From the IMG/VR virus record IMGVR_UViG_3300027710_000009: a stretch of DNA of 64,000 nucleotides; one strand, written 5' to 3'. The stretch is from a virus (lineage: Duplodnaviria; Heunggongvirae; Uroviricota; Caudoviricetes). Numbering within the stretch: position 1 is the stretch's first letter; each line of letters begins with the position of its first letter. This document shows positions 3,422 through 51,603 of the stretch, piece after piece. The notes below the pieces were generated by a model. It saw only the letters and a program-made list of their open reading frames with translations, searched no databases and was not told where the DNA came from. The translations under genes and the position numbers were made by a program.

Positions 3422-3661
3422 TTAATACATCTTTTTTGGCAAAGTTTCTGAAGCTACTTTTTTCTGCCAGCGCCGCTTGGCTTGACTTTTTGCTTTTTTA
3501 CGAGCTGTGGTTGGCTTTTCGTAAAACTCACGTTCGCGCAGGTCTTGAAGCAGTCCGCTTTCTTGAACTTTCTTTTTGAACTTGCGTAGAGCTTTTTCAA
3601 CTTGGTCGTTGACCACTTCAACTTTTAGACCTACTAGTGTAGTTGGGTGTTTATATCTCAT
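3422..3661 (-). CDS. rpsU: Ribosomal protein bS21
   Basis: VEKALRKFKKKVQESGLLQDLREREFYEKPTTARKKAK..A.RR, canonical S21. Confidence 0.95.
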   Translation of the reverse strand: MRYKHPTTLVGLKVEVVNDQVEKALRKFKKKVQESGLLQDLREREFYEKPTTARKKAKSQAKRRWQKKVASETLPKKMY

Positions 3662-4865
3662 GTGTCTCCTGTGTCATTGTATTAGTAGTTATCATGTCTT
3701 CCGTGACCGCTAACAGTTTAACTCCATTCTTTTTTAGCTCTTGCATGCCATACATGTATGGCATCATGCTTTGTTCTAAAACAGTTTTGAGCCCTCTTGC
3801 TCCAATGTTGAGATCCAGAGCTTGTTGTGCAATAGCCAGTATTGCGGAGTCATCAAATTCAAGTTCTACATTGTCGCTGGAAAAGTAAAATTTCATCTGC
3901 CCAAGCAGGCTGTTTTTGGGCTCAATCAATATGCGAGTAAAGTCTTCTAGTGTAAGCGGATCCAGTTCAACTGCTACTGGAAACCGTCCAATAAATTCTG
4001 GAATCATTCCGTACTTCATGAAGTCTTCAGGCAACACGCCAGAGTGGTCTGTTGATTTTTCTGTGTTTCGTGTAAAACCTATACTGGTACCTTTGCGGCG
4101 CTTGTCAATAATGTCACGCATGCCATCAAATGCGCCACCTGCAATAAACAGGATATTGCTGGTATCTATTTCCACAGTTTCTATAGCAGGGTGTTTTTTG
4201 TTGCCGTTCATGGTAACACGGCATTTGGTGCCTTCAACCATTTTCAACAAGGCCTGCTGTACACCCTCACCACCAACGTCTCGATGTATACTGGCGCTTT
4301 CGCTTTTGCGGCCAATCTTGTCAATTTCATCAATGAACACAATGCCTCGTTCGCAACGGGCAACATCGTTGTCGGCTTCACTGAGCAGTCTGCCCACTAG
4401 GCTTTCAACATCTTCCCCCACGTAGCCAGCTTGTGTCAGTGTGGTTGCATCAGCAATCACAAATGGCACATTTAGATATCTAGCCACTGTTTTGGCCAGC
4501 AGTGTTTTACCTGACCCGCTGGGACCAAACATCAAGAGGTTGCTCTTTTCTAGTTCAATTTTGGGTTTGAAATACACTCGTTTGTAGTGATTGACCACTG
4601 CAACACTCAGTGCTATCTTGGCAGTGTCTTGACCAATGATATACTGATCAAGAAATTTTCTTACCTTGATTGGATCCAGAGCTTTGTTGATCTTGCGATC
4701 AGCTTTGATTGAATCCAATCTGTCATTGTCAAGAATGCTAGAACATAATTCTATACATTCATTACAAATTGATGCTTCATTGGCCACAATTAGTTTTTTG
4801 ACTTCACTGCGAGCCTTGCCGCAGAAGTCACAACTCATGTGCCTGATTTGAACTAGATCATCCAT
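3651..4865 (-). CDS. clpX: ClpX AAA+ unfoldase
   Basis: N-terminal C4 zinc domain (CDFC...CNEC), GPSGSGKT, DATTLTQAGYVGEDVES, IDEIDK, RDVGGEGVQQALLK, IGF loop, GARGL. Confidence 0.97.
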   Translation of the reverse strand: MDDLVQIRHMSCDFCGKARSEVKKLIVANEASICNECIELCSSILDNDRLDSIKADRKINKALDPIKVRKFLDQYIIGQDTAKIALSVAVVNHYKRVYFKPKIELEKSNLLMFGPSGSGKTLLAKTVARYLNVPFVIADATTLTQAGYVGEDVESLVGRLLSEADNDVARCERGIVFIDEIDKIGRKSESASIHRDVGGEGVQQALLKMVEGTKCRVTMNGNKKHPAIETVEIDTSNILFIAGGAFDGMRDIIDKRRKGTSIGFTRNTEKSTDHSGVLPEDFMKYGMIPEFIGRFPVAVELDPLTLEDFTRILIEPKNSLLGQMKFYFSSDNVELEFDDSAILAIAQQALDLNIGARGLKTVLEQSMMPYMYGMQELKKNGVKLLAVTEDMITTNTMTQETHEI

Positions 4866-5220
4866 ATGTTTTTAGAAACCAGTCAATGGGTTTGATTATT
4901 TTACGGTCGTTGCCTAGGAAATTGGTATCTCCGTAGTACCAGGTGTGCGGCCCTTTGATTAGATCACGCTTGATGTGATCAACCACTGTGGATTGCATGT
5001 TTAGAATTATATGGTCAACACGATTGATTGCTCCAGCAAGCCAAAGTTCATCCAGCATGATATCACTGTAGATGTAGATGTTGAGATTGAGTGGCGCCGT
5101 CTTGCACCACAGTGCAACACTTTCAATATCCACCCAGTCAGCATCAACAATAAGAATTGAAGGATTTGATTCTTTAACGTAGTCTGGGGGAGTTACAAAG
5201 TTGCTATAGTTCTGTGTCAT
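4858..5220 (-). CDS. Hypothetical protein
   Basis: ORF overlapping both neighbours; start uncertain. Confidence 0.65.
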   Translation of the reverse strand: MTQNYSNFVTPPDYVKESNPSILIVDADWVDIESVALWCKTAPLNLNIYIYSDIMLDELWLAGAINRVDHIILNMQSTVVDHIKRDLIKGPHTWYYGDTNFLGNDRKIIKPIDWFLKTYG

Positions 5221-7273
5221 GGTCACGTAGGTATTGATTGATTTCGTTACGTTCAGCGTCATTCAAGTCATCGATGTCATATTCACCACTACGGATTTTT
5301 TCAATCAAATGTTCAATATAGGCCTGATTGTAAGCCAGTCTGTCATTGGTACTTTTATCTATTTCAATCCACTTGGTACCATTGAATTTATAAAGCCTGC
5401 TGGGCAGATAGTCAATGCGCAAAAACACATCGCTCTTGTCAGGATCAGCAGGGAATGCACTGCCAAATCCTGCATCTCCACTGTTGGCAATTTCCACATC
5501 ATCTGCTTGTGCAGGTCTATTGTAGTTTGCAAAATACTTTTCTTCAAATCCCAGTGTGGGATCATACACTACTTCTTCGCCAGAGTCAACAGGCTCAGCC
5601 ACAACTGGGTCTGGCTCTTGCACAACTTCTTGCACTACCACTTGTTCTTCAATTGCAGGAGGTGCAACTACTTCTTCAACAAACACTGACGGAGGTGGCG
5701 GCAATAATGCAACAAGTTCATTTACTTTGGAATTGCGTTCTTCAGCCACAGTGATAGCCGCCATCAAGTCTGCTTGCAGTTGGGAAACCCAACCATTTAA
5801 TTTTTCAATCTCTTGATCTTTTTTGTCAATGTCAATACGTAAACGAGCAATGTTGTTATTGGCACCAGTTAAGTTTTTATCTAGCTGTGCTTTTTGCAAA
5901 CCAAGATCATTTGCAGATGCACTGGTAGCTTCAAATGCAGTTTTCAAATCGCTTTTGATTTGTTCGCTTTGTGCCAGTTCTGCTTCAAGTTCACCACGGC
6001 GTGTTTCGGCACCTGAAAGTTTTTGTTGTAGTGTTTCAAACTCAGCGGCCAGAGTGTCTAGCATTTCTTGCTGTTGTTGTGCTTCGGCCAACAAACGAGT
6101 TTCTTCAGCACGAGCCAGTTCTAGATCTGCAAGCACCGCATCAACGTCAGGTTCCGTTTCTAATTCTGCCAGCTGTGCATTGCCTTCTTTGGCCAGTCGT
6201 TCTGCTTCTTCTGCGTCCAGAGCTTTGGCAATCATCCGGCCACGCCAGAAAAATTGTTCAACTGCTTCCATCTCTTGTGCTTCACGTTGTTCTTCAGTCA
6301 GGGGATGCTCTGTGGATTCCGGTTCTTCAACAGGCGTGGTAGGGGTGGCCTCAGCAGTGACTTTCTCAACTATGGGTTCAGCGTCCACCACCGCAGGAAT
6401 GACCACTGCTGGTTTTTCTTCTACAGGCTTGTTGCGTCTAAAGAAGTTGACCAATGCTTCAAATGATCTCTTTTCTTCTTTTTCTTCATCCTCGTCGTGT
6501 ACCCATCCGCCTCGGCCTCGACGAGCCCATTCCAGTTGCTTGTTAGCGGCAAGAATAAGAGTGAGTGCCAATGGGTCAAACACAATAACGATTAAAATAA
6601 TAACCCAACGCACAGCGGCTTCCAGCATGTTGTTGCTGGCTTCGTCTCCGTAGATCAGTGCCGCGATGTATTTGATAGGCCCAACTTCTGCCTCCACTTT
6701 TCGGAATTCAGCACGGAGTGGCGCGGCCTCTGCACCAAGGGCGGTAATAGTTTTCTGTTCGGCTTGGATCTCGGATTGAAGTCTGACACGTTCTTTTTGT
6801 TGACTGCGTCTAATTTGCACAGCTTTGTCGGCACCTTTTTCGTCACTGCTTCGACCCATAACCTGGTCCACAGCTTCATCCATCTGTTTAAGCGCCTTCC
6901 TGTTGGCATCAATATTGTCCTTTGCTATTTTGATCTTTTCATCGTAAATGGCAACCCGGGCCATTGCATCACCTGACACAAGACTTTGGTCACCGTGTGC
7001 TTTGGACAGGAATCCAAAGATGCCCATGCTTGTGAGTAGCATGAGGAATATGATGGCAGGTATCAGATACAGCTTGAATGCTGTGCCAGCCCGCTTCCAG
7101 TTGTTGTGCAACCAAACAGTTGCTACAATTTTACCTGCTTCCAGCGCACCGCCCATGATCATCACAGGCACAACAGCGGCCGCAAAGATGGCGGTAAGAC
7201 CCACCACCGAGTACCAGGCAGCAATGGCTGAGATTATAACAGAGATGAATAGTATGAAGTATCCGAAGATCAT
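5204..7273 (-). CDS. Multi-pass membrane protein with long coiled coils
   Basis: Three N-terminal hydrophobic helices, coiled coil, fourth TM (VIILIVIVFDPLALTLILAA), long acidic coiled coil, small C-terminal beta domain. Confidence 0.8.
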   Translation of the reverse strand: MIFGYFILFISVIISAIAAWYSVVGLTAIFAAAVVPVMIMGGALEAGKIVATVWLHNNWKRAGTAFKLYLIPAIIFLMLLTSMGIFGFLSKAHGDQSLVSGDAMARVAIYDEKIKIAKDNIDANRKALKQMDEAVDQVMGRSSDEKGADKAVQIRRSQQKERVRLQSEIQAEQKTITALGAEAAPLRAEFRKVEAEVGPIKYIAALIYGDEASNNMLEAAVRWVIILIVIVFDPLALTLILAANKQLEWARRGRGGWVHDEDEEKEEKRSFEALVNFFRRNKPVEEKPAVVIPAVVDAEPIVEKVTAEATPTTPVEEPESTEHPLTEEQREAQEMEAVEQFFWRGRMIAKALDAEEAERLAKEGNAQLAELETEPDVDAVLADLELARAEETRLLAEAQQQQEMLDTLAAEFETLQQKLSGAETRRGELEAELAQSEQIKSDLKTAFEATSASANDLGLQKAQLDKNLTGANNNIARLRIDIDKKDQEIEKLNGWVSQLQADLMAAITVAEERNSKVNELVALLPPPPSVFVEEVVAPPAIEEQVVVQEVVQEPDPVVAEPVDSGEEVVYDPTLGFEEKYFANYNRPAQADDVEIANSGDAGFGSAFPADPDKSDVFLRIDYLPSRLYKFNGTKWIEIDKSTNDRLAYNQAYIEHLIEKIRSGEYDIDDLNDAERNEINQYLRDHDTEL

Positions 7274-7343
7274 AGATGTATTTAACCTAGTTTTTACTAG
7301 ACTAGTTTAACTTGACGCTGAACAAAAAGCAACCAGTTTGGTA

Positions 7344-12627: not shown

Positions 12628-12954
12628 ATGAACTTACAAAAGCCCACCCGCAAAAGACGCCAGGATACCAACCATGCTGTTTACTGTATCACCAATACAG
12701 TGACAGGTGAGCAGTACATTGGTATTACCGTGTGTGCTGGTAACGTTCGCCGGGCACTCAAAGTGCGCATCCAAAAACACGTTCGCCGTGCTGTTACAGA
12801 AAACAAAGATTGGAACTTGTGCAAGTCAATCCGCGAACACGGCACACTGGCTCACACATACGGTCTTGTAGAAATCATCCGCGGACGCAAGCCTGCTCAT
12901 GCACGTGAGCGTGAATTGATCCGTATGTACAACCCAACTCTCAACTCACACTAA
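12628..12954 (+). CDS. Small GIY-YIG nuclease-domain protein
   Basis: AVYCITN...QYIGIT, R..KH, E.ELI..YNP.LN. Confidence 0.8.
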   Translation: MNLQKPTRKRRQDTNHAVYCITNTVTGEQYIGITVCAGNVRRALKVRIQKHVRRAVTENKDWNLCKSIREHGTLAHTYGLVEIIRGRKPAHARERELIRMYNPTLNSH

Positions 12955-21608: not shown

Positions 21609-22055
21609 TCAGTAGTTGTCCAGCTTCAGCTCAGAGCTGGCGTAATCGATTACATGTGCTAGGTCGTCTGGTATTGATTTTTTATTTACGACTTCTTCGG
21701 GTTCCAAATTAAGAACATATTTTCCATCGTCGATCCAAACTAAATTATACTGATACAACGTACCCTTGCGTCTAAGCACACGCAAGCATAGATCATGCCC
21801 GCTATGGTCACTTAGATGTATAGTATACAGGATTCCCAGGGCGCGAGCAAGATCACAATAGTAATTCTCGGCAATTAAAGTCCAGGGATCTGGCCAACTA
21901 TCGGGCTTGTCGTGATCAAGATAGAAGGGAGTGAACGGTGCGCGACTCCAAAACTTTGCAGTCTGCTCCAATGCTTGTTCAAAAGGTAATAAATTGATTT
22001 CACGCCTAAAACGTTTCCACTGTTCTAGGCGATCTGCCGACGGCAACTTCCACAT
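21609..22055 (-). CDS. Hypothetical protein
   Basis: 148 aa ORF (WPDPW...YC motif); TAAGTA upstream. Confidence 0.7.
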   Translation of the reverse strand: MWKLPSADRLEQWKRFRREINLLPFEQALEQTAKFWSRAPFTPFYLDHDKPDSWPDPWTLIAENYYCDLARALGILYTIHLSDHSGHDLCLRVLRRKGTLYQYNLVWIDDGKYVLNLEPEEVVNKKSIPDDLAHVIDYASSELKLDNY

Positions 22056-24435: not shown

Positions 24436-24762
24436 TTATACTCGAAAACTTTCCCCGCATCCACAGCGGTCTCGTTCGTTGGGATTTGAAAAGTCAAACC
24501 CTTCATTCAATCCATTGCGCACGTAGTCTACTTCTAGACCATTCAAGTAAACTGAGTCTTTACCGTTTACCCAAATTGTTGCGCCATGGTGTTCATACTT
24601 GAACCAGTCTCTTGTGACTGGCACATGATCTATGTATTCTAACACATAAGCCATGCCAGAGCAACCAGTAGTTCTAACTCCTATGCGTATGCCCACCCCA
24701 GTGCCACGCTTGGCTATGTTGTCTGTGATTTTCTTTGCCGCACGTTCAGTTAGAGTGATCAT
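24436..24762 (-). CDS. iscA: Fe-S cluster A-type carrier IscA
   Basis: ITLTE.AA, TGCSG.AY, F.F.NPN...CGCGESF. Confidence 0.95.
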   Translation of the reverse strand: MITLTERAAKKITDNIAKRGTGVGIRIGVRTTGCSGMAYVLEYIDHVPVTRDWFKYEHHGATIWVNGKDSVYLNGLEVDYVRNGLNEGFDFSNPNERDRCGCGESFRV

Positions 24763-25129
24763 GTTTGCTCTTATAATCAATTATGGCTGCTTTGATAGCA
24801 TCTTCTGCTAGAATTGAACAATGTATTTTTACTGGAGGTAGAGCTAGTTCTTCGGCGATGTCAGAGTTTTTGATTGATCCTGCTTCGTCAAGTGTTTTTC
24901 CTTTGACCCATTCAGTAACCAAACTCGAGCTTGCAATGGCTGACCCGCAGCCATACGTCTTGAATTTTGCGTCCGTGATGATGCCATCTTGCACCTTTAT
25001 CTGTAGTTTCATTACATCACCACACGCAGGTGCTCCTACCATGCCGGTGCCAACTGTGTCGTCAATTTCTAACTTGCCCACATTGCGTGGGTTTTCATAA
25101 TGATCAATTACTTTGTCGCTGTATGCCAT
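24746..25129 (-). CDS. iscU: Fe-S cluster scaffold IscU
   Basis: YSDKVIDHYENPRNVG, GAPACGDVM, KTYGCGSAIAS, LPPVKIHCS. Confidence 0.97.
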   Translation of the reverse strand: MAYSDKVIDHYENPRNVGKLEIDDTVGTGMVGAPACGDVMKLQIKVQDGIITDAKFKTYGCGSAIASSSLVTEWVKGKTLDEAGSIKNSDIAEELALPPVKIHCSILAEDAIKAAIIDYKSKHDHSN

Positions 25130-25132
25130 TGG

Positions 25133-25735
25133 TTATCCTAGGTTACCTGCTACACTGATACGCACACCGTCGGAGGTATAAAACGGTGATACTGTGTGTT
25201 TCATCTTGGCTGGAAATATTGCCATGCGTCCTTCCCAGCTTTTGTCAATTCTAAGAGTTGCTGTGGCAATGTCACCAAGCACTGTGGTGTAGGCAAATGA
25301 AAACATACTGACGTCTTGGTTCTTGGCAAGAGGAAACATTTTTAGTTCTTCTTCGAGATCATAGGGAATGTTTACCCAGATCACCCAACTCAACACACCC
25401 GAATGATCATGCAAGGGATTGTATTCGTGCTTGACCTGTAGGTTCACCCAGGACTCTTGAAATTTCACTGGTTGATCCGATACCATATGATTTCTTTTGA
25501 GATATTCGGCGCCAAGCAGTTCTATCAGTTGCTTGGCTTTGTCGCTTAACTCCAAGGAAAACTCGCCTTTGATTTGTCCAGCAAGTCTACTATTAAACAG
25601 TATGGCTTGTTTGTTTCCAGACATGATCTGATGCACTTGCTCGTGTATTTCAGTCATTACCAGTTCTGGTGCATTCACTAGAATATAGTCAATGTTTGGT
25701 AATACATGTGTTTCAAATTGAAAATACTCGGCCAT
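25133..25735 (-). CDS. Putative 2OG-Fe(II) oxygenase
   Basis: WVN...EYNPLHDH..LSWV...FPA.MKHTV.PF...RISVAGN. Confidence 0.8.
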   Translation of the reverse strand: MAEYFQFETHVLPNIDYILVNAPELVMTEIHEQVHQIMSGNKQAILFNSRLAGQIKGEFSLELSDKAKQLIELLGAEYLKRNHMVSDQPVKFQESWVNLQVKHEYNPLHDHSGVLSWVIWVNIPYDLEEELKMFPLAKNQDVSMFSFAYTTVLGDIATATLRIDKSWEGRMAIFPAKMKHTVSPFYTSDGVRISVAGNLG

Positions 25736-28498: not shown

Positions 28499-28939
28499 TT
28501 ATGTATTTAACCCAGATGGCGGAATCTTAAAATATATGTTTTTGATTGCACCAGACGTGTAAAATAATGGAAGCATAAAACGTGCTGTTTCTGTTAGATA
28601 TGTAATAACCGGAATTTCATCAAAATCATCATGCAACAATCCCACAGGGTCTGTTGCAGATTCATACGCACCTGCATGATCCACAGTGAACGCAAAACTC
28701 CATACCTTGTGAACGCCCTTGTACATTTCGCCAAATTCATAATTATCTAGCGAAACTTCGTCCATTCTACATACTATGTCCACGGGTATGTTGCGAATAC
28801 CAATACATTGCAGTATGGTTTCCCAGTTGCGTTGTTGATTACGTTCTAGTTCTTTGTTGCCTGTGTCACGTATCACTCCTGTGGGGGTGACGTCAACCAA
28901 GGTGTATCCAATAAACGTTTTATCTTGCATGATATTCAT
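28499..28939 (-). CDS. Hypothetical protein
   Basis: TLVDVT.TG...RNQQRNWET; TAAATA at 28945-28950. Confidence 0.75.
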   Translation of the reverse strand: MNIMQDKTFIGYTLVDVTPTGVIRDTGNKELERNQQRNWETILQCIGIRNIPVDIVCRMDEVSLDNYEFGEMYKGVHKVWSFAFTVDHAGAYESATDPVGLLHDDFDEIPVITYLTETARFMLPLFYTSGAIKNIYFKIPPSGLNT

Positions 28940-36761: not shown

Positions 36762-38159
36762 TTACCCTTGTCCAGTTTTGATAGCAGCCAGCATGCTTTT
36801 GAGCTTGTTGTTGCCTACTTCAGCGTGTATGGGTGCTGTGTCTTTTATTTCACCAGTGCTGACATCCACTGTGCTACGTGCTTTGATTTGATTCATGATG
36901 CTGGTTGCTTGTGGTTGGTAGCCACTGGCTTCTTCACCTTCATCTGTGATACGCATGGTTTCGATGTTGTAGGTTAGATCCACTTTCATGCCCACGCCTG
37001 TTGAGCTTCGACTTTTCATACACTGTATTTGATAGCGTCCACGTTCACGCATGGCTCTGCTAGTAAAGATACCAAACACATTATCTGCTGTGTTAATTTT
37101 ACTAATACCACCTGAAATATGACTGTGGTCAAATTCAATTTCATCCACAGCACCACGATTAAGCTGTGACGCTGTTACCATTAGTATGCCCAGCTCTTTG
37201 GCCAAGTTACGCAGTTCTTCACTCACATACTTGTCCTTCACAAACAAGTCGTTAGGACTGACCTTGGCACTCACTGGCATCAGCAGATCCAAGTAGTCAA
37301 TCATGATAAAGTCTACCCGGCGATTTGTCTGTATTTGATACTCTTTCAAAAATGCACGAATGTCATTGATATTGCTTTGCGCTGGCAAACCCTTGACCTG
37401 ATATGTGCCTGACTTCTTGCCCACCATCTTGACTTTGAGTGTTGTGGTATCAATGTCCTTGCGAATATCTTTTGTGCTCATGCTACTTAACATTGCATCA
37501 GTACGCAAGCTGGTTAGTTCTTCACTCAGTTCTAGTGTGACATACACACCATGCAATCCTGTTTGAATCCAGTTAAGAGCAATGTTCATCATCACAAGAG
37601 ATTTACCTGATCCTGACCCGCCTGCAAAGATGTTGAGTTCGCCGCGACTGAAGCCACCGTACAACAATTTGTCCAGCTGTGGCCATCCTGTTGACACTTG
37701 CCCGCCTGAGTTGAAATACTTGTTGATGCGTTCTGCAGGATCTGCAAAGTAGTCTGTGCCTAGGTCTTTTTGCAAACTGATCTGCACAGCATCTTTGATC
37801 AGTTTTTCTACAGGATTGAAATCACCGTTTTCAATTAGATCAGCGGCTTTGAGAATTGCACGTTCTAGTTCTTTTTGTTTGGTAAAGTTTTCAAACTCTT
37901 CCAGGAACCAGCTGGTGTGTCCTTCATTTAGATCCGGCACTGGTCTCAGTTCCACACCAGTTGTGGCACGTATTTGATCTAGGTTGGGTAGAGTCTTGTG
38001 TTTTTCGCTGTGTTCTTTGATAAACTTTGCCACTGCACGTAAACTGCGATCAAAGTTTTCTTCGTTGTAGATGTTCTGCACACGCACATAGCTACCTGCG
38101 TCATGCAACATCATTTCAAGAAATAACTTTTGTAAGTCTGGATTGTAGTCTTTTGTCAT
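36762..38159 (-). CDS. Replicative DnaB-like helicase (T4 gp41-like)
   Basis: STGW..LD..LYGG, GGSGSGKS, TLELSE, IDYLDL, TASQLNR, KSR. Confidence 0.95.
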   Translation of the reverse strand: MTKDYNPDLQKLFLEMMLHDAGSYVRVQNIYNEENFDRSLRAVAKFIKEHSEKHKTLPNLDQIRATTGVELRPVPDLNEGHTSWFLEEFENFTKQKELERAILKAADLIENGDFNPVEKLIKDAVQISLQKDLGTDYFADPAERINKYFNSGGQVSTGWPQLDKLLYGGFSRGELNIFAGGSGSGKSLVMMNIALNWIQTGLHGVYVTLELSEELTSLRTDAMLSSMSTKDIRKDIDTTTLKVKMVGKKSGTYQVKGLPAQSNINDIRAFLKEYQIQTNRRVDFIMIDYLDLLMPVSAKVSPNDLFVKDKYVSEELRNLAKELGILMVTASQLNRGAVDEIEFDHSHISGGISKINTADNVFGIFTSRAMRERGRYQIQCMKSRSSTGVGMKVDLTYNIETMRITDEGEEASGYQPQATSIMNQIKARSTVDVSTGEIKDTAPIHAEVGNNKLKSMLAAIKTGQG

Positions 38160-39223
38160 AGCTTATTATATAGTGTTTTGCTCTTGAGCTCAATCTTTAA
38201 GGCACTCGTCTCACGAGCGTCCAGTATGCTTTTGAGAACAAACAAAGGGCCAAGGTGTTCCACCGCAGAAGCTGTGTCTTTGTATTTTTCGCTCCACACC
38301 GGAAAGCTCACAGTCCATCCATAGCCTATTGCCGCATCAATAAGACTGCGCCCGGGCCAGACTTTTTTACCTGTGCGTTCGTTCACGTGTACATCAAAGT
38401 CGGGCACCACTATGACTTCTCTACCAAGGCTTTCAATGATGTCTGCTTGTGTATCATTTATTTCGTTGCTCAAGATAGCCACACCATCTATGCTCATGGC
38501 ATCAAATGGGCCTTCTACCACAATAACAAACTGCGAAGTTGGCCGCTGTTTGTCAACGTTGAACACAAAGTTTGGTTCGTGGCTGTTGTGATACTTGGGC
38601 TTTACTCCGTCTACTAGTGCTCTAGCAGTGTAACCAATGATTTGATTTTTCCAAGTAAACGGAATTATCACACGACGATCCAGGTTGTAACTGGACTCAT
38701 CAGTTATGTAAAAGTCATATTTGTTTGTGTTTATCTTGCGATTATAAACATACTCCACTGCATTGTTAAGCTGTTCGGGCACAACATAATCATCGTCAGT
38801 TAGACCTAGCATGGTTGCCCACTCGCTGAAGCTGGCGCTGTCCTCAGGCAAGGGTCTGGGCTTGAACGTTATTTCAACTTCGGGCACTGGCGCACGTTCG
38901 GCTACTGGTACCAGCTCTTTGATACGCAAGGCCTCCATGACCAGTCGCTGTACAGTGTTGTCATCTGCACCTAGCCATTTCAACAACTTGCGGAATTTGA
39001 ATCCAATTGGACGCCCAGGATAGAAGCCTGTTTTGAATCCGCAATTGAAACAATGATAGCTGACAGATCCATCTGCGTTTGGTCTGACGCCGCCGCGCTT
39101 GCGAGTGTCTACGCTTTCGCCGTTGTGCGGGCAACAAACTGCATTGAAGCTGATCCAGTCGTTGGATTGCTTACGCCGGGCTGGCAGTAGTTGCAGTAGC
39201 TCTTGTTGTACTATATCATACAT
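38156..39223 (-). CDS. DNA primase (T4 gp61-like)
   Basis: Zn finger (CC...YHCFNCG), RVIIPF, GYTAR, VEGPFDA, PDFD TOPRIM; start 39223 or 39226. Confidence 0.9.
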   Translation of the reverse strand: MYDIVQQELLQLLPARRKQSNDWISFNAVCCPHNGESVDTRKRGGVRPNADGSVSYHCFNCGFKTGFYPGRPIGFKFRKLLKWLGADDNTVQRLVMEALRIKELVPVAERAPVPEVEITFKPRPLPEDSASFSEWATMLGLTDDDYVVPEQLNNAVEYVYNRKINTNKYDFYITDESSYNLDRRVIIPFTWKNQIIGYTARALVDGVKPKYHNSHEPNFVFNVDKQRPTSQFVIVVEGPFDAMSIDGVAILSNEINDTQADIIESLGREVIVVPDFDVHVNERTGKKVWPGRSLIDAAIGYGWTVSFPVWSEKYKDTASAVEHLGPLFVLKSILDARETSALKIELKSKTLYNKL

Positions 39224-39307: not shown

Positions 39308-39682
39308 GTGGACGACATTCTAAAAGAATTCATTAAGAAGTACCCCTTTCTAAGCTACGTGGCTTATGGCGGAAACGAATATATTGGCATTGTACAAAAT
39401 GTTGACGATATCCTAACCACCGTGTATGACTACGGTTCCTTGCGAACAGAAACTGAAAAAATAAATTTCCTAGCACTTGGCGAGACCTGGTGGTGGGAAA
39501 GCAATCGCACTATTCCAATCAATGTATTTTTGAGAGCTGACTGGGGACCATTCCGCTACTGCCTTAAAACCATGAATAGCCGTGACGTGGAAATTAGACT
39601 TGGCCCTTATGTTAGCCTCAAAGAAATTGCAGCCAAAAAAACCAAACGTCGATCCATTGTTTTAGTTCGCAAAACTGAGTAA
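39308..39682 (+). CDS. Hypothetical protein (likely GTG start 39308)
   Basis: KYPFLS...YIGIVQN...WWWESNR.IPINVFL; TAAATA at 39276-39281. Confidence 0.75.
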   Translation: MDDILKEFIKKYPFLSYVAYGGNEYIGIVQNVDDILTTVYDYGSLRTETEKINFLALGETWWWESNRTIPINVFLRADWGPFRYCLKTMNSRDVEIRLGPYVSLKEIAAKKTKRRSIVLVRKTE

Positions 39683-40243
39683 GTTCATATTTACTACTAC
39701 CAATTGAGCATATGCTATGGCATGGCTTTTTTTGAAATAGTAGGAATCATCCTGTGGCTTTTCCCAAACTGTGACAGCAATATCACGCCAGGCCTGCCCT
39801 ATTAGGTGTCGTTTGGCAGGACGTATAACACTGAGCAACATGGCCAGGCGTGGAATTGAATCCACAGGTTCTGGCATTTTCTTCAATGTGTTCCAGTGAT
39901 TGTTCACATGTATCAGCTGTTCAAAGAACCCTTGATCTGTGTTGAAACGATTCCAATCTGGTGGCGCTTGCATGAGTTCTTGCAAATGTGCTTCATTGCG
40001 TATCTGCTGATAAAGAGTAACATTCAAGAAATCCAGTTTTAGATATCCACGACTTTCCGCAGTTTCATAGTCTAGGCTGGCAATGCCCAACACAGGATCC
40101 ACAGGAACGTCTGTGACATATACGCCTGTGTTGTGCGGTACCAGTTTTGTATCTTTGAGCTGGCTAGCAGGCACGTGTTTTACCAGTGCTAGAATCTTTT
40201 GCCTGTCAGCAAAGTCAATATCAATGTCTGATTGGAATTTCAT
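39662..40243 (-). CDS. Miniature DNA polymerase III alpha (DnaE) catalytic-core-like protein
   Basis: SDIDIDF, HNTGV, KLDFL, IRPAK, FKKSHAIAYA; about 193 aa. Confidence 0.8.
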   Translation of the reverse strand: MKFQSDIDIDFADRQKILALVKHVPASQLKDTKLVPHNTGVYVTDVPVDPVLGIASLDYETAESRGYLKLDFLNVTLYQQIRNEAHLQELMQAPPDWNRFNTDQGFFEQLIHVNNHWNTLKKMPEPVDSIPRLAMLLSVIRPAKRHLIGQAWRDIAVTVWEKPQDDSYYFKKSHAIAYAQLVVVNMNLLSFAN

Positions 40244-42442: not shown

Positions 42443-43897
42443 TTATTGCCATTCTGTTTTTTCTACCGCAAAAGGATAGTTAGCTTCTTTATAAAATTGT
42501 TTACGTTTGGTCAAATGGCGTTTGGCAAACTTGCATGTGCTAGTAATGTCCCATATCTGCACAAAGTCTTTGTCTTCTGCTTTGCGAATACCACGTCCAA
42601 TACTTTGTATAACCCTAACAAAACTCTTTCCAGGTTCAACCAAAACCAAGTTAAAGATCCTGGGTATGTTGATACCCACAGCAGCCACACCGTATGTGGC
42701 CACAATGATTTTGCCTGTTGCTGTGGCCACGTCATCGTATTCATCTTGTCTGTCCTTTGCTTTGGTTGCACCCGACACAAATACTGCATTGTCGCCCAGG
42801 CGTTTGACCAGTTCTTGTCCTGCGGCCACACGGTCTACCAAGATAAGAGTATTGCCTGTGTCTTTGATGGTGCCTGCTAGCTTGGCAATGTAGTCCAATC
42901 GCTCAGGTGTGTCTAGTAGGTATTTGAGTTCGCTTTGATAGTTTGAGTATTCCACATGGTCCACAAGTTGCACCACGTTCACGTGACATTGACTAAGGTG
43001 TCCTGCTTCTTGTAGTGTTGCGGCCTTCAAACTGCCCACAACCTCGCCAAGAGCACACTTGATGCTCATCCACTCATATTGCTCTTTGGGTATGGTTCCT
43101 GTGAGTCCCCAGCGAATAGGAATGTGCCCCATCACTCCTGTCAGCAGAGTCTTTAATGCATCTGCTTTGGCCATGTGTACTTCATCTACAATAACACACA
43201 CAACATCTTCCAAAAACTCACCAATGGTGATATCTGCTTCTGCATTTTTTGTGTTCTTGAGCAAGATGTTTAGACTTTGCCAGGTGCAGATTGTGTGCTG
43301 GCGACCAAACTCTTTGAGATCTCCAAAGTACACACCAACGTCAAGCCCCATGTTGAGATAGTCTTTGTGTGTTTGTGTCACTAGACTCTTGTTGGGCACA
43401 ATAACAATACTACGACCATAGGGTGTGACTGCATCGCTTAGTGCGGCTGTGATAACAGTTTTACCTGCACCTGTTGCCACTTCTTGCACACTTTGCGGAT
43501 TCTCAAAGAAACGATTTATAATCTCCACCTGATAGTCACGCATGGCCATGGGCTGACCTTCCATTGGGTGACCCTTGGGCCAGGCAATGTGCCCGTAACT
43601 GTTTTCAGTTACTGCGGTAAAATCAAATGTGGTCTTGTAGTCGCGAGTGTCTTCAACATCAATATCATAACCTTGTTCGGTTAGATAAGGCAGAATCTCA
43701 GGCAGCAGATTGATGTAAGTGCTACCCCCTAATTGGAAAAAGCTAACCTTGCCATCCCAACGTCCCAGTCGCACTGCGGGCAAGTATCTTGCTCCAGGAA
43801 TATCAAACTTAAATTTATCTACTAGTGCTTTGCGTTCAGCAAGTTCTAGTCCTTCAATTTTTACGTTTACTTCGTCTTTAATAATCAATTTTGCCAT
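42443..43897 (-). CDS. uvsW: SF2 DNA helicase UvsW-like
   Basis: G.WDGK, RDYQ, ATGAGKT, DEVH, GLTGT, GINIP, QSIGRGIR. Confidence 0.92.
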   Translation of the reverse strand: MAKLIIKDEVNVKIEGLELAERKALVDKFKFDIPGARYLPAVRLGRWDGKVSFFQLGGSTYINLLPEILPYLTEQGYDIDVEDTRDYKTTFDFTAVTENSYGHIAWPKGHPMEGQPMAMRDYQVEIINRFFENPQSVQEVATGAGKTVITAALSDAVTPYGRSIVIVPNKSLVTQTHKDYLNMGLDVGVYFGDLKEFGRQHTICTWQSLNILLKNTKNAEADITIGEFLEDVVCVIVDEVHMAKADALKTLLTGVMGHIPIRWGLTGTIPKEQYEWMSIKCALGEVVGSLKAATLQEAGHLSQCHVNVVQLVDHVEYSNYQSELKYLLDTPERLDYIAKLAGTIKDTGNTLILVDRVAAGQELVKRLGDNAVFVSGATKAKDRQDEYDDVATATGKIIVATYGVAAVGINIPRIFNLVLVEPGKSFVRVIQSIGRGIRKAEDKDFVQIWDITSTCKFAKRHLTKRKQFYKEANYPFAVEKTEWQ

Positions 43898-43938: not shown

Positions 43939-45069
43939 TTACCCAAGTTTATGGTTAAAATAAATAATCTTCCGGCTGTTCTGCACCATGAGTGATTTTT
44001 CTGCGCCGGCCAACAACCCAGCATGACTGATCAGTAACGGGATAGTGTCAAGCTCTCGCATGACCTTGTGTGTCCATATCACTGGTGCATCAGATACATT
44101 TGTTTTGTTTTTGTTGCCTTGAACTTCTACGTTTTCTGTGCCCAATAGCTCAAGGTATTTTTGATCACTGCCGCTGGCACTAGGGTCAAACACAATCATG
44201 GGCAATCTATTTACCAGCTGTGCATAGGCAAACAGCCTGGGTATTTGTCCAAAATCTCCAATGAGTTCGTAACTGGACTTGCGTATGAACACACTGATGT
44301 CTGGACCAGCAATGTGATCAACTTCTGCCCACACACTGTCACTGATAGTGTAGCCTAGCTCACTGCCTAGGTCAGCCAGTCGCAGTAGATTATCATCTGT
44401 AAAATCCACACCTTGTTCTGCCAAGTACTCTAGCAAACTTGATTCAGCGTTTTCAATTCTAAGTTGACCATTGATTCGTGTTAGTTCAATTGCATAAGTC
44501 TGTTGTTCTGCGGCTAGAATCTCATCCATGATCTCACTCAGCTCTTCGCTGATCTCAAACTGGTTGGCCTTGGCCCAGGCCACAACAAAATTTACATTGA
44601 ACTCGCTCAGTGCAATGTTCCAGCTTTTTTCTTCTTTGTCAAATTGTGCAAAGCCTTGTCGTTGTTGTAGCAACTCTCTCAACTGTTGAATCATTTTAGT
44701 GTCGTAAGGAAACTTCAACACCATATGGTCGCCGTCAACCCAACAACGTCGACTCCGGTCAAGCATGCGCAAGGGTTTACGATACTGTGGCGCCGCCATT
44801 GGCTCAATGTTGATTCCTTTGCTGGCCAGTTGTCGTTGATACTTGAATATCAACTTCAAGGCAAGGTCGGCTTGACGATCAGTTAGTGCGCCTGAGCCGA
44901 GTGTGTGGTCAGTAACACTGTCAAGAAAGGATGTGTCATAACGTGCTAGGCTTACAATAGGATCAAACTCATAGCCAAGCCAACCAGAGCTCTTGACATT
45001 GCCTTGTGCAATATCTCTTTTGCCGGCTATCACTTCTAAATAATCTTCGACCGTAGGAAAGGTTTTCAT
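43939..45069 (-). CDS. Hypothetical protein (likely start MKTF at 45069)
   Basis: Long ORF; TTGACT-17-TACAAT promoter just upstream of 45069. Confidence 0.75.
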   Translation of the reverse strand: MKTFPTVEDYLEVIAGKRDIAQGNVKSSGWLGYEFDPIVSLARYDTSFLDSVTDHTLGSGALTDRQADLALKLIFKYQRQLASKGINIEPMAAPQYRKPLRMLDRSRRCWVDGDHMVLKFPYDTKMIQQLRELLQQRQGFAQFDKEEKSWNIALSEFNVNFVVAWAKANQFEISEELSEIMDEILAAEQQTYAIELTRINGQLRIENAESSLLEYLAEQGVDFTDDNLLRLADLGSELGYTISDSVWAEVDHIAGPDISVFIRKSSYELIGDFGQIPRLFAYAQLVNRLPMIVFDPSASGSDQKYLELLGTENVEVQGNKNKTNVSDAPVIWTHKVMRELDTIPLLISHAGLLAGAEKSLMVQNSRKIIYFNHKLG

Positions 45070-45101
45070 GCTGTATTGTAACACCTGCATAAACAGAAGT
45101 C

Positions 45102-45132
45102 AAAAAAAAGCCCTATCATTTCTGATAGGGCT
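45102..45132 (-). terminator. Rho-independent terminator of the AAA gene
   Basis: 10-bp stem, GAAA tetraloop, T-run. Confidence 0.9.
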
Positions 45133-45200
45133 GTTAAGGGGGTTGTGGAAAGGAGCTAACAAACCACAACCATTAAACGGAATAGTATCCGCTTAATTCT
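45102..45200 (-). ncRNA. Structured 3' UTR / candidate sRNA: two hairpins plus terminator, middle loop carries anti-SD GCUCCUUU
   Basis: GGTTGTGG-TTTGTTAGCTCCTTT-CCACAACC then AGCCCTATCA-GAAA-TGATAGGGCT-T7. Confidence 0.5.
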
Positions 45201-46244
45201 TTACGCAACCTTCATACAGGTTGTACGTGCCATTTTTTCCCAGCTGTTAGGAAAGCTCTTGTACAGTTGAGCAATCTTGATTGCCATACGCAAGCTCATT
45301 TCACGCAATGCATTCTTGTTGGCATCCATGAACTCAATAATCATGTCTTGACCAACATCGCTGATGTCCATGTCTTCGAACAAAGCACCAGTCTTGGCAA
45401 TTTGCTTGATACGCAACAACTTGTCACGCATGGTGTCCAGAGTCAAGTCAAGATAGTGACAACGTGACTGCAATGCATCCAAGTGGTCCTTGAGCTTCTG
45501 GCTCTTCATCTTGTCAAACTTCATGTTGGTGATAAACACAACAGAGCCTTTGAACTCAAAGCTGTCTGGGATGCCTTCGCGGCGCAATGCACTTGACTCT
45601 GACAACCAAGAAATCTTACGCTTCTTGCCCGAGTCCAAGGCACCCTTTAACAGGTTCAAACTAACGTCATCTAACAAAATACTGTCGCAGTCGTCAAACA
45701 CAACCACACAATTCTCATCCGAGTACTTGTACAGAGTTTGGAACAAGCCAATAGGAGTAGCAGAGCCTTTGACAACTTCTGCGCGAAGCCTGCGGCCTGC
45801 GATAGTGTCAAACAGGGTAGCCTTTTCGATCTCTTGCTCTACACCGTATGACTTACCAACTCCAGGAGGGCCACTCACAATCATTGCACGGATGTCGCCA
45901 GCCACAGCGGCCTTGGTCATCTCTGTAAGCATTTCAAAACGCTCGGCAATATCAGCCATGCGTTCTTCGTCAGTTTGTGACGCTTGCACAACTGCTTCAA
46001 CATCTGAGTCCATGGGTGCAACAACACCTTCAAAATCGCCTTCACCGGCAAACTCGTAGTCTGTCATGCCTTCAACTTTGACACGGATTTCTTCTGGAAA
46101 GCCAGGAAACTTGCCACCGTTCTTCACAGTAACATAACCACCTTTGGCAGTCATCTTAAACTGCTCTACGAGCTGGAACACTTGTCCAGACACGTCTGTT
46201 GCACGATAAGCACCTGACTTGATACGGATGAATGCTGTTGACAT
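45201..46244 (-). CDS. AAA+ ATPase, early
   Basis: GPPGVGKS, VFDDCD, FITN, ALQSR; own sigma70 promoter and AAGGAGC SD. Confidence 0.88.
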   Translation of the reverse strand: MSTAFIRIKSGAYRATDVSGQVFQLVEQFKMTAKGGYVTVKNGGKFPGFPEEIRVKVEGMTDYEFAGEGDFEGVVAPMDSDVEAVVQASQTDEERMADIAERFEMLTEMTKAAVAGDIRAMIVSGPPGVGKSYGVEQEIEKATLFDTIAGRRLRAEVVKGSATPIGLFQTLYKYSDENCVVVFDDCDSILLDDVSLNLLKGALDSGKKRKISWLSESSALRREGIPDSFEFKGSVVFITNMKFDKMKSQKLKDHLDALQSRCHYLDLTLDTMRDKLLRIKQIAKTGALFEDMDISDVGQDMIIEFMDANKNALREMSLRMAIKIAQLYKSFPNSWEKMARTTCMKVA

Positions 46245-46286
46245 TTAAGGGCTCCTTTTTTATGTCGTTTGTTTAACTTAACCTAT

Positions 46287-46315
46287 AGTATAGCAAAAAC
46301 GGGCTTATTGGTCAA
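46287..46315 (-). promoter_or_regulatory. Early promoter TTGACC-17-TATACT
   Basis: Consensus hexamers, shared spacer GCCC motif. Confidence 0.85.
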
Positions 46316-46451
46316 CCGTTTGTGTTGCTTGTTCTACAAGAATTTGTTGCGAAAAAACAACACCGCCGTTGGCTACTTTATACATCTCTGCTACATCTTT
46401 GACGTAAAATTGCATGATTTTACCTTGTGCAGTGATAAGAGTGTATTGCAT
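46305..46451 (-). CDS. 48-aa early peptide MQYTLITAQGKIMQFYVKDVAEMYKVANGGVVFSQQILVEQATQTVDQ (not in ORF track)
   Basis: Own promoter (46484-46512) and GGAGC SD. Confidence 0.75.
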   Translation of the reverse strand: MQYTLITAQGKIMQFYVKDVAEMYKVANGGVVFSQQILVEQATQTVDQ

Positions 46452-46483
46452 TTAGCGGCTCCGTTTGTTTAACTTATGCATAT

Positions 46484-46512
46484 ATTATAGCAAAACGGGC
46501 CATAATGGTCAA
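46484..46512 (-). promoter_or_regulatory. Early promoter TTGACC-17-TATAAT
   Basis: Consensus hexamers. Confidence 0.85.
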
Positions 46513-49254: not shown

Positions 49255-49370
49255 GGGTTGTTCCGTTTGGTTGGGTCTGGTGTTTTGGGTGTGGGCACAA
49301 TAGGCTCCACTCGCCGTGGCTGTTTTGGCGGTGAGTAAACAGGAGGGGCAACAGGGGTAATGGGTATCAT
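49251..49370 (-). CDS. 39-aa proline-rich peptide (not in ORF track)
   Basis: MIPITPVAPPVYSPPKQPRRVEPIVPTPKTPDPTKRNNP; ATGA overlaps at both ends. Confidence 0.55.
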   Translation of the reverse strand: MIPITPVAPPVYSPPKQPRRVEPIVPTPKTPDPTKRNNP

Positions 49371-49573
49371 CTGATCAACATCAAATTCATTTTGCGCATG
49401 AGTTGAGATTCAACCTGGCGCCAAAAACGATGCGCCCAAGTGTCTGGGTACACCGTGTTTAATACACCACGCACATTGTCCAGTTTGCGTCCAATAGATT
49501 CGATATCGTCGCCCACTATAGTTGCTCCTCTAGTGAATTCTAACATTGAAATTTTACGATTTCTGTTGCGCAT
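49367..49573 (-). CDS. Small hypothetical protein
   Basis: GGAGG SD before ATG 49573. Confidence 0.65.
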   Translation of the reverse strand: MRNRNRKISMLEFTRGATIVGDDIESIGRKLDNVRGVLNTVYPDTWAHRFWRQVESQLMRKMNLMLIR

Positions 49574-49575
49574 TG

Positions 49576-49746
49576 TCAAGCCTCCCAATCAGTGCTCCGG
49601 AGCTCAAACTCTTCCTGTATCTCTTCCTGCACCTGCTCCAGTTTTGCTAGTATAGCATCACGCACAGGCTCGGGCAAGAACAAACTAGGCACTTGATAAA
49701 TCAAATTATCAAAGTCCTCTAACCATTGTTCATTACGAGTTGCCAT
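49576..49746 (-). CDS. 56-aa acidic hypothetical protein (not in ORF track)
   Basis: MATRNEQWLEDF...DWEA; GGAG SD; fills the gap between neighbours. Confidence 0.65.
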   Translation of the reverse strand: MATRNEQWLEDFDNLIYQVPSLFLPEPVRDAILAKLEQVQEEIQEEFELRSTDWEA

Positions 49747-49748
49747 GG

Positions 49749-49946
49749 TTAGGCTCCGTAGTAAGGACTGTAGATTTCGTCCACTTCAGGCACATCCACA
49801 ATGTCTTGATTGCTTACGCCAAATGTTTCTAGTGTAGCAAGTACATCTTTGAGCGGACAATTCAAAAGCTTCGCAATCATGCGAGCATCATGTCCATCAA
49901 TAAACATTTCTTGGATGTCATAATCCAGTTCAGCCATTTTGCTCAT
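49749..49946 (-). CDS. Small hypothetical protein
   Basis: MSKMAELDYDIQEM; GGAG SD. Confidence 0.7.
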   Translation of the reverse strand: MSKMAELDYDIQEMFIDGHDARMIAKLLNCPLKDVLATLETFGVSNQDIVDVPEVDEIYSPYYGA

Positions 49947-49965
49947 ACATTTCTCCAATTAAAAA

Positions 49966-50451
49966 TTAACGCCAAACACGATGCTTTTCAGCAACCCATT
50001 CGCTACCATCATACTCATCAATTTCCCAGTCTACATCTGCTGGAATCTCAACAACCTTTAGTTCTGCGTGACGTCCGTTTGCACGATCACCCAGTTCTTC
50101 TACCACTTGCACAAGATACGGATCATCACGTGCTAGATCGCGATCATGGAACACGGTGCGACTGTATGCGGCATTGTGTGCTTGGCGTTCTGCCAAAGTC
50201 ATCTCATGCCAGTTGTCAGGGTCACCCTTGATCTGTTCCTCTGGCGGTACTAGATAGTAGTTAAACGGAATCAAGCCGCCAAACTTCTCGTTGGCTTGTG
50301 TCCACACAGGGATGCCACACTTGTCAAGATATGCCAGGATACCTTCATGACTGAGTCCAAAGCCACCGTGACAACTATTGATCACCACCTTACGCACACC
50401 TTTGAGGTGTGCAATAAAGCGTTCTTGTTCTTGTACTGTCAACTGCGACAT
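49966..50451 (-). CDS. Conserved phage hypothetical protein
   Basis: KVVINSCHGGFGLS...RDDPYLVQVVEELG...EYDG.EWVAE. Confidence 0.8.
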   Translation of the reverse strand: MSQLTVQEQERFIAHLKGVRKVVINSCHGGFGLSHEGILAYLDKCGIPVWTQANEKFGGLIPFNYYLVPPEEQIKGDPDNWHEMTLAERQAHNAAYSRTVFHDRDLARDDPYLVQVVEELGDRANGRHAELKVVEIPADVDWEIDEYDGSEWVAEKHRVWR

Positions 50452-50452
50452 A

Positions 50453-50779
50453 TCAATCTGCTCGTGAGCTCATGTATGCATCGATACCAAATTGGCGCAA
50501 GGTGTCGGCATAGGCTTGTGCGCCTGCTTCTTTGATGTCCATGCTCTGCGTGAAGCTACCACCTGGGTTCCACAAGCTCAGGCCACCACTGTATTCTTTG
50601 CGGAAGCCCACGCCTTTGAGCGCACGGCCTAGTTTGGTTGATGCTTTTTCACGCACCACTACCCAGGCAAAACCACAGTAGCCAGGCTCGCCGTGTTTGG
50701 CGCGGAACTCTGCTTCTGCCTTTTGTGCGGCCGCGGTTGCAGTATTGTGGATAGATTCGATGTTGTCAAGTGCAATCAT
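50453..50779 (-). CDS. Conserved phage hypothetical protein
   Basis: CGFAWV...TQSMDIKEAGA.AYA..L...GI. Confidence 0.8.
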   Translation of the reverse strand: MIALDNIESIHNTATAAAQKAEAEFRAKHGEPGYCGFAWVVVREKASTKLGRALKGVGFRKEYSGGLSLWNPGGSFTQSMDIKEAGAQAYADTLRQFGIDAYMSSRAD

Positions 50780-51150
50780 TATGCTACCTTTCTGAAATAA
50801 CCGTAGGGCAGGCCTACACAAAAACAAAAATATTCAAAGTCGCCTGTGGCGCCTTCGGCATCCATAAGCCATGCAATCACACGCTCACGGTTGGTACCAG
50901 GGTGCATGAGATTTGCCACACGGTCTTCAAACTCCACAATGGCACGAGCTTCGGCCTCTCGGCGAGCAATTTCTTCTTGCTCAATGGCACGACCCAGCAC
51001 CTTGAACTCAGCGTCAAAGTCCTCAAGGGTCCAAGCGGACGTATCAACACCACGTGGGCGAACGCCATAGGCATCCTTGTACATGTCCCAATACATGCAT
51101 TGGGCTTGCTCTAGTGCAGACAACTCTTCCCAACTTTTGAACTGTTCCAT
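50779..51150 (-). CDS. Conserved phage early hypothetical protein
   Basis: DMYKDAYGVRPR...GLPYGYF; AAGGAGC SD. Confidence 0.8.
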   Translation of the reverse strand: MEQFKSWEELSALEQAQCMYWDMYKDAYGVRPRGVDTSAWTLEDFDAEFKVLGRAIEQEEIARREAEARAIVEFEDRVANLMHPGTNRERVIAWLMDAEGATGDFEYFCFCVGLPYGYFRKVA

Positions 51151-51179
51151 CTTGGCTCCTTATTACTTAATATACTTCG

Positions 51180-51216
51180 TATTATAGGTGAAATGGGCTT
51201 TTTGGTCAACCGTTTT
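51180..51216 (-). promoter_or_regulatory. Early promoter TTGACC-17-TATAAT
   Basis: Shares AAAAACGGTTGACCAAAAAGCCCATTTC with the promoter at 12586. Confidence 0.88.
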
Positions 51217-51545
51217 TATACCTTGGCAATCCTGTACGTAACCCCTTGATTTGTTAGTACTTTTGTAATACCTTGGGCTTCGTAGTCCTGCTCCAACAGG
51301 GCTAGATTCTTGCGATCCCGAACTGTGGGCTTGTCAATTTTGATTGCAATAAACTTGGTGCGAGGGTTGATGTAGATGCCTTTTGCAGAGTAGCAAAGTT
51401 CCAGGCCCAGCTTCATGCGTTCGGCACGAACACGCTCGGCGTCGGTGTAGTGACTCCACATTGCAGTGGCTCGCATGCGAGCGTCACGTGCGGCGGCGTA
51501 GGCATAGTAGCCTGCGCTTTGTGTGTCTAGCTCTTTTTCTTTCAT
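51216..51545 (-). CDS. Early hypothetical protein
   Basis: Own promoter and AAAGGAGC SD. Confidence 0.8.
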   Translation of the reverse strand: MKEKELDTQSAGYYAYAAARDARMRATAMWSHYTDAERVRAERMKLGLELCYSAKGIYINPRTKFIAIKIDKPTVRDRKNLALLEQDYEAQGITKVLTNQGVTYRIAKV

Positions 51546-51574
51546 GCTGGGCTCCTTTGTTTAACTTAGCCTAC

Positions 51575-51603
51575 AGTATAGCAAAAGGGCAAATAATCGT
51601 CAA
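51575..51603 (-). promoter_or_regulatory. Early promoter TTGACG-17-TATACT
   Basis: Consensus hexamers. Confidence 0.8.

Follow-up and report, generated by a model that had tools for sequence, protein, structure and literature searches.

Translational control through pairing between the 5' and 3' parts of one message has been tested in few bacterial cases, namely icaR of Staphylococcus aureus and OppZ and CarZ of Vibrio cholerae, the latter two being autoregulatory small RNAs (sRNAs) derived from 3' untranslated regions (UTRs) (PMC7398697). Ribosomal protein bS21 is known from large freshwater phages, where a survey of 900 bS21 phages listed Hsp20 (127) and Clp proteases (50 and 47) as neighbours, and incorporation into host 30S subunits is reported for the HTVC008M protein, as cited in the same paper (PMC9723584). 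Here, we describe a candidate phage case of 5'-3' pairing in a stretch of 64,000 nucleotides (nt) from the Caudoviricetes record IMGVR_UViG_3300027710_000009, which is called the window below. The gene for an AAA+ ATPase similar to T4 NrdC.10 is followed by an RNA hairpin whose loop is complementary to the ribosome-binding site (RBS) of the same gene, and this case adds natural compensatory changes, in about 180 variants, to the tested bacterial ones. We give a probability of roughly 0.6 to the reading that the loop at the 3' end of the ATPase mRNA pairs with its own RBS and limits translation of the ATPase, and that bS21 and the leaderless starts, which also occur in the window, are probably independent of it. 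What carries the case directly is the sequence, the covarying stems, the complementarity and the covariation of that complementarity across lineages.

Downstream of the ATPase stop codon, hairpin 1, hairpin 2 and an intrinsic terminator follow in this order, with a fold z of -6.6. In 21 close loci, which were chosen through their ATPase and afterwards restricted to those sharing the loop seed and its spacing, 98.3% of the cells in the stems are paired and 14 of the 26 pairs are changed on both sides, while none of 500 shuffles reaches the observed level and slid controls pair at 34–50%. The 8-bp stem of hairpin 2 is paired in 100% of these loci, with four pairs changed on both sides, and its 15-nt loop is open by fold prediction. 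Thus, the RNA with an anti-Shine-Dalgarno (anti-SD) loop complementary to early leaders, which a sequence-only reading of this DNA had proposed, is confirmed as a structure. Since the strand is fixed by G-U pairs and the U run, a CsrA sponge on the opposite strand was ruled out. The first search, made with the loop as query, was kept out of the evidence on loop conservation. No Rfam family reached its gathering score in the window or in the 8 related loci scanned, and the best scores obtained were below gathering (30.1 of 54 bits for PyrR and 23.7 of 50 bits for RF02278). A genome-wide terminator scan for further anti-SD hairpins gave a single strong copy in the window and likewise in 6 of the 9 relatives, the scan being insensitive, as the known loops of G004 and G019 were missed (the labels G and L, such as G001 and L181, stand for the related records and ATPase loci compared with the window). 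At positions 45075-45113 the U run of the terminator enters the -35 box (TTGAC) of the leaderless gene that follows, and most of the relatives examined are alike. An identical 15-nt loop on a perfect 8-bp hairpin lies between genes of an unrelated phage (L008:1490-1530; G022, 64% GC), and no full-length target for it was found in the 34-kb G022 record.

The pairing between loop and leader was examined across relatives collected by the ATPase protein alone. In total, 398 loci including the window were obtained, of which 12 partial or cut ones were dropped; the remaining 386 gave 212 unique leader/3' pairs. A terminator lay no further than 2.4 kb away in 181 of these, and for 179 the own leader was compared with the 50 nt preceding the terminator to obtain the longest complementary stretch. 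The 31 pairs with no terminator in range were left unscored, and some of these will be misses (in G023 the loop lies 5.5 kb from the leader). The longest complement has a mean of 8.9 nt and reaches at least 7 nt in 165 pairs, at least 8 nt in 144 and at least 10 nt in 76, whereas permuted pairs have a mean of 6.9 nt (best of 2000: 7.33) and reach at least 8 nt in 67 cases on average (best 88). Past the GG anchor, the paired columns change in a compensatory way (AT149/GC15, GC143/CG14/AT3, CG141/TA19 and CG70/TA43/AT16). Distinct leader classes, among them GGAGCCAACC, AGGAGCTGAC, GGAGTTGGC and GGGCTAGAAA, are each matched by their own loop, and GGGCTAGAAA has no GGAG; in G019 the loop pairs over 10 nt with a GGAG-less own leader, which ranks first of 15 and far above the other early leaders. 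The own leader is also the top one among the early leaders of G004 (1/27) and G005 (1/8). The position of the loop just before the terminator is kept even where insertions have added up to about 4.5 kb, and in most classes the paired stretch spans the SD sequence and the spacer to the start codon; in L282, L289 and L299 it sits just upstream of the SD sequence. G003 has an ATPase leader without GGAGC, and there no loop was found, only a bare terminator ahead of the gene for the 376-amino-acid (aa) protein. Folding of the whole transcript gave 0.6% leader-loop pairing, a figure that was set aside because such pairing is a pseudoknot, which the program cannot form. In two classes (the window, 45149-45163, and L059) the 5' block of the loop also complements a block upstream of the SD sequence, in an order incompatible with one continuous duplex.

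In cultured phages with NrdC.10, T4 included, the complement is at most 6 nt in 9 of 13, and the 7–8-nt matches of Roth17 and EJP2 were discounted, being located in the next gene or its start region. The Roseobacter phages RDJL Phi 1, RDJL Phi 2 and RDJL6 (L181:1255-2330, L185 and L186) have an NrdC.10-like gene with an 8–9-nt complement between leader and short 3' UTR before a terminator. The match is retained in RDJL6 though the UTR has diverged, and the matches in these phages could be due to chance; a comparable one was not seen in RcSimone-Hastad, RcRudolph, L191 or L192. The RDJL phages would offer a culturable test system. In the Pseudomonas phage PA5oct (L100:2480-3700), an 8-nt complement of the leader lies in a hairpin arm after the stop codon, that is, in a stem and not in a loop. 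A second conserved motif, RNA-like, roughly 50 nt long and likewise with an unchanging loop, lies 15–900 nt past the ATPase stop codon in L024, L039, L248, L250, L265, L295, L296 and G003, often ahead of an RBS or a terminator, and partially in G023 and G024; it is absent from the window, and the four loci scanned gave no Rfam match. A small gene of the ATPase operon of G023, near 281766, encodes what we take to be an N-terminal pilin-like motif.

The ATPase matches phrog_1250 with E = 9.8e-84 and has full-length homology with the P-loop motifs, at 31% identity to T4 nrdC.10 over 96% of the length and 39% to the PA5oct protein. Searches of PDB and Atlas yielded no more than a weak likeness to clamp-loader/Cdc6-type AAA proteins or unnamed clusters, and literature found under the name NrdC.10 mentions the AAA motif and nothing further. 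According to the proposed mechanism, host sigma70 polymerase would make an ATPase transcript of about 1.2 kb, presumably early in infection. Because the loop does not arise until the message is finished, the initial rounds of translation would be free. The loop would then pair with the SD sequence, either within one molecule, as a long-range pseudoknot in cis, or in trans through the mRNA tail or a cut fragment, and block 30S loading, so that the ATPase would be made in a pulse under delayed negative feedback. Within the subclade of the window, the 8-nt seed probably also contacts other early leaders. We infer the choice between cis and trans, any processing and the sign of the effect. The element thereby hints that the amount of NrdC.10, a widespread ATPase of the T4 family, may have to be kept in check, and the roughly 180 natural variants are ready-made cognate and swapped pairs for reporters.

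The leader with which the loop is predicted to pair belongs to a set of early promoter-leader cassettes. The 13-mer TAAGTTAAACAAA occurs three times in the window (46268-46280, 46464-46476 and 51556-51568) against 0.03 copies expected, a count reached in none of 100 shuffles. Every copy starts 6–7 nt downstream of a strong predicted promoter, TTGAC-N18-TATA(A/C)T, and is followed by GGAGC. The loop complements two of these three leaders over 8 nt, and the third has GGAGC alone in common with them. The fourth early leader, that of the gene at 50779-51150, is TAAGGAGC and lacks the 13-mer. Relatives carry other A-rich strings in place of the 13-mer, and within single genomes whole promoter-leader blocks are repeated near letter for letter. 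The stereotyped leader on the earliest small genes, as it had been described from the sequence, is therefore present on three cassettes with 13-mer and GGAGC, but one of these genes is not small, as it encodes the 347-aa ATPase. To judge from the repeats, such a leader is what duplicated early cassettes look like, and duplication of the kind known for the PeSLs of T4-like phages (PMC4122927, PMC2839356), which are likewise repeated early-promoter cassettes ahead of small variable genes, would be sufficient as an explanation. PeSLs differ in being composite terminator/promoter units, while the cassettes of the window are known as promoter and leader repeats only.

Leaderless starts form a separate signal. 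Of 345 promoters in the window and nine related records, 47 have their -10 box 6 nt before the ATG, which is the peak of the distances, and 60 have it 5–7 nt away; this signal is real as a prediction from sequence. The claim that replication genes are leaderless holds for UvsW, primase and DnaB, whose -10 box in the window lies 5–6 nt before the ATG, but not for the polymerase fragment, the two exonucleases, nrdA and nrdB; glutaredoxin was classed as SD-led, as were nrdA, nrdB, Hsp20 and bS21 itself. For DnaB, whose start overlaps the primase stop codon, translational coupling is also possible. Furthermore, leaderless starts are not specific to replication, since they also precede a gene at 12628 encoding a GIY-YIG protein, genes with a late-type box and genes that we take, from motifs in their products, to be DnaJ-, UvsE-, HAD- and IscA-like. 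Three predicted leaderless starts follow a TAA(A/G)TA box (28499-28939, 21609-22055 and 5204-7273), two of which are conserved (in 9/10 and 8/10 genomes), and bS21 in G023 and G024 may itself have a start of this type. We assume the box to be a T4-type late promoter. The conserved leaderless starts are worth recording.

The phage does encode bS21, as the sequence-only reading had stated (PF01165, E = 9.6e-17, 60.9 bits against a cut-off of 27), and the protein matched 32 PDB sequences, the best of them weakly at about 54 bits. It was found in 19 of the 37 records searched and in all six that are at least 90% complete. Among these six near-complete relatives, the loop is present in G001, G004, G023 and G024 and was not found in G003, and G009 was covered over 3 kb only. 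In G003, a record with 100% completeness, bS21 is accompanied by 13 leaderless sigma70 units but by no loop that could be found.

Several points weigh against the reading that the loop limits translation of its own gene. The permutation test is uncorrected for relatedness, and a FastTree tree shows few independent changes, with 3/3 concordant at one column and about 5.5/7 at another (median p 0.03), while two further tests among those listed were non-significant (p 0.125). The complement is under 7 nt in 14 of the 179 pairs, L463 combines mismatched classes, and the own leader ranks lower in the window (2/5), G001 (6/29), G002 (5/15) and G015 (10/18). Within the subclade of the window (55 rows), the loop is nearly invariant and the own spacer drifts past GGAGC. 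Of the four sequencing runs used, available as assembled contigs only, three are of RNA, and none of these covers the hairpin stretch, which is uninformative either way. In addition, we take the effect to be repressive, and not protective, by analogy. The sign of the effect is not given by covariation, and the pairing could be protective or structural, closing the ends or forming a nuclease site that sets the half-life of the mRNA, as the pairing in icaR generates an RNase III substrate (PMC3868564) and the three loci that pair upstream of the SD sequence would allow; this is improbable, for in most classes the SD sequence and spacer are covered and 30S binding would be occluded. That the complement is a by-product, either the remnant of an inverted leader copy or a chance match of a pyrimidine-rich loop, could draw on the window match being 8 nt only and on the same 19-mer being present in the record of an unrelated phage and also, as the opposite strand of an SD-like sequence, in two GTDB genomes. 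It is already largely refuted, as both sites co-vary across lineages and across kilobases of inserted genes, and as the stems covary while the loop stays fixed. Control of its own message stays the preferred role of the loop. In the subclade of the window, the hairpin could also act in trans as an sRNA that silences all early mRNAs with an AAGGAGC leader, as an RNA counterpart of T4 RegB, leaderless mRNAs escaping by default. We regard this as rather doubtful, and equally tentative is its extension to the history of the subclade, in which a self-regulating mRNA tail would have turned into a phage-wide antisense timer that switches off about ten early mRNAs via AAGGAGC, with leaderless middle and late messages escaping. 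The frozen loop beside a drifting spacer speaks for such action, and of the 30 GGAG leaders of the subclade 24 have GGAGC after the early promoter (G001 11/14, G002 9/10), against about 25% in other open reading frames (Fisher p 0.02 for G001 and 0.0007 for G002), 0/6 in G003 and 1/9 in G019, whose loop is not of the GCUCC type. Orthologous early genes mostly have GGAGC in the genomes with a GCUCC loop and never in G003. However, the cassettes are near-identical duplicates, for which shared descent would be expected to give such a pattern as well. Within class B (GGAGCCAACC) the C is present in 36/71 only, identical cassettes occur with C and with T, and some lineages with no detected loop have GGAGC neighbours (3/4 GGAG leaders). 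The starts of G003, in which no loop was detected, pair with the loop as strongly (-18.2) as those of G001 (-16.8), so that the ranking of trans targets by duplex energy gave no support, and the final 300 nt were found to hold no internal promoter. The survey of GGAGC leaders comprised 34 records, 9 of them with no such leader, and the other records gave 0/4, 0/2, 2/4, 2/7, 2/5, 3/12 and 1/3 in addition to three single leaders. Perfect 10-nt targets of the window-type loop in five records were limited to the opposite strand of the RNA itself (G001, G002) and one coding match (G003). The sequence-only reading was right that the loop is complementary to RBSs of early genes, but, as judged from these comparisons, the partner that is always kept across the phage family is the leader of the ATPase itself. 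If class-wide action is true of the subclade, it would represent a new means of closing the early phase of a phage infection and an RNA-only equivalent of RegB in a large tailed phage.

The larger proposal had been a single switch in which the RNA, leaderless replication genes and bS21 jointly shift translation from SD-led early or host mRNAs to leaderless phage mRNAs. All three parts are present in the window and in four of the five near-complete relatives examined in full, and the 6-nt peak of leaderless starts also speaks for it, yet the expected co-occurrence breaks in G003, where bS21 and leaderless genes exist with no detected loop, so that the parts are separable and we consider the joint switch highly improbable. 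The leaderless state is not conserved for UvsW (3/9) and DnaB (3/8), SD-led starts remain on nrdA, nrdB, Hsp20 and bS21 in the window, and the loop pairs weakly with a generic SD sequence (-10.2) and with the bS21 RBS (-7.2). Moreover, in published structural work, E. coli ribosomes lacking uS2 and bS21 ease the passage of leaderless mRNA (PMC10491246), so that loss of bS21 and not its presence has this effect; extra bS21 would therefore more likely support SD-led initiation, the opposite of what the circuit needs, although a divergent phage bS21 could differ. Thus, bS21 is probably not part of the RNA element. As for shutoff of the host, no result points to it, and no search for host targets was made. 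The sequence-only reading knew of no description of the combination, and we found no account of the element or of the three parts together in the literature searched, most subscription journals lying outside that search; a phage structured-RNA screen (PMC10690425) gave no match in the 6 supplementary files searched, and the motif may still be listed there. Neither bS21 nor the leaderless starts extend what has been published by much.

The window comes from the genome of a large phage; related complete records are 350–375 kb, and a 371-kb contig bears a bS21 protein identical to that of the window. Nearly all of its genes are on the minus strand (Table 1), and no tRNA genes were found within it. 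Its sigma70-type promoters and GGAG SD sequences would fit a proteobacterial host. A CsgF-like gene (1-1329; Pfam E = 1e-5) lies near the start of the window, and IscU, IscA and a 2OG-Fe(II) oxygenase are encoded in the region 24436-25735. The DNA polymerase fragment at 39662-40241 (phrog_11778) is short and stands alone, which suggests a split polymerase. A long block at 52490-63216 has the look of sugar-nucleotide and glycosyl-modifying genes, as judged from the translations only.

Table 1. Coordinates of the RNA element, the early cassettes and the genes discussed (positions in the window)
Feature	Position	Strand	Basis or distribution
Ribosomal protein bS21, SD-led, between ClpX and Hsp20/ClpS	3422..3661	-	PF01165
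Gene with TAA(A/G)TA late-type box 4-7 nt before ATG, predicted leaderless	28499..28939	-	9/10 genomes; outside replication block
DnaB-like helicase, predicted leaderless	36762..38159	-	3/8 genomes
Primase, predicted leaderless	38156..39223	-	6/9 genomes; box 8-9 nt away in two more
UvsW-like helicase, predicted leaderless	42443..43897	-	Leaderless in 3/9 genomes with called start
376-aa gene, no known family, predicted leaderless (-10 box 5 nt before ATG)	43939..45103	-	8/8 genomes with homologue, including G003 (no loop detected)
Intrinsic terminator, stem and U run	45102..45132	-	Tail overlaps -35 box of next gene
Hairpin 2, 15-nt open loop (45149-45163) complementary to ATPase RBS	45141..45171	-	Fold and leader-loop covariation
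Hairpin 1, directly after ATPase stop	45172..45197	-	6/10 pairs changed on both sides; found in closest subclade of window
AAA+ ATPase, 347 aa, T4 NrdC.10 homologue (phrog_1250)	45201..46244	-	
ATPase leader, 13-mer and AAAGGAGC (46251-46258) as predicted loop target	46245..46280	-	
Sigma70-type promoter of ATPase gene, predicted	46287..46315	-	
Second promoter-leader cassette and 48-aa gene	46305..46512	-	5-nt SD complement to loop only
Fourth early cassette (TAAGGAGC, no 13-mer) and 123-aa gene	50779..51209	-	Loop complement 7 nt
Third promoter-leader cassette and 109-aa gene	51216..51603	-	Loop complement 8 nt

Compared with the described systems, the bS21 of the window also lies beside ClpX and Hsp20, a neighbourhood already described (PMC9723584), but for the clades detailed there the predicted hosts are Bacteroidetes, and their bS21 gene is located among structural genes and expressed late, whereas the phage of the window uses GGAG SD sequences. 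T4 RegB (PMC3014915), the functional model for silencing of the early class, likewise inactivates early mRNAs after transcription via a GGAG SD sequence, its own mRNA included; it is, however, a protein endoribonuclease that needs S1 and involves no antisense RNA, and no search for a RegB gene was made in the phage. The Betaproteobacteria toxic sRNA (RF02278, PMC4603805) is also a short CUCC-containing RNA that ends in a terminator, but its listed members are stand-alone small RNAs and the phage element is the tail of an operon, with 23.7 bits against a gathering score of 50. In icaR (PMC3868564), an anti-SD stretch in the 3' UTR pairs with the SD sequence of the same mRNA, and this pairing, too, may be in cis or in trans; the differences are that icaR has a long 3' UTR, a complementarity of about 40 nt and cleavage by RNase III, while the phage has 7–13 nt in a hairpin loop before a terminator. 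CarZ and OppZ resemble the phage element in that a stem-loop RNA at the 3' end of an operon pairs with an initiation region of its own operon, which for CarZ is that of the first gene; they are released by RNase E, bound by Hfq and tested, whereas the phage element rests on evolutionary covariation. Like such 3'-UTR autoregulatory RNAs, the element lies between the last stop codon and the transcript terminator, and its complementarity to the initiation region of the operon to which it belongs is accompanied by compensatory change, weakly so within the subclade of the window. Judged by position and complementarity alone, it is likely to work like CarZ or icaR.

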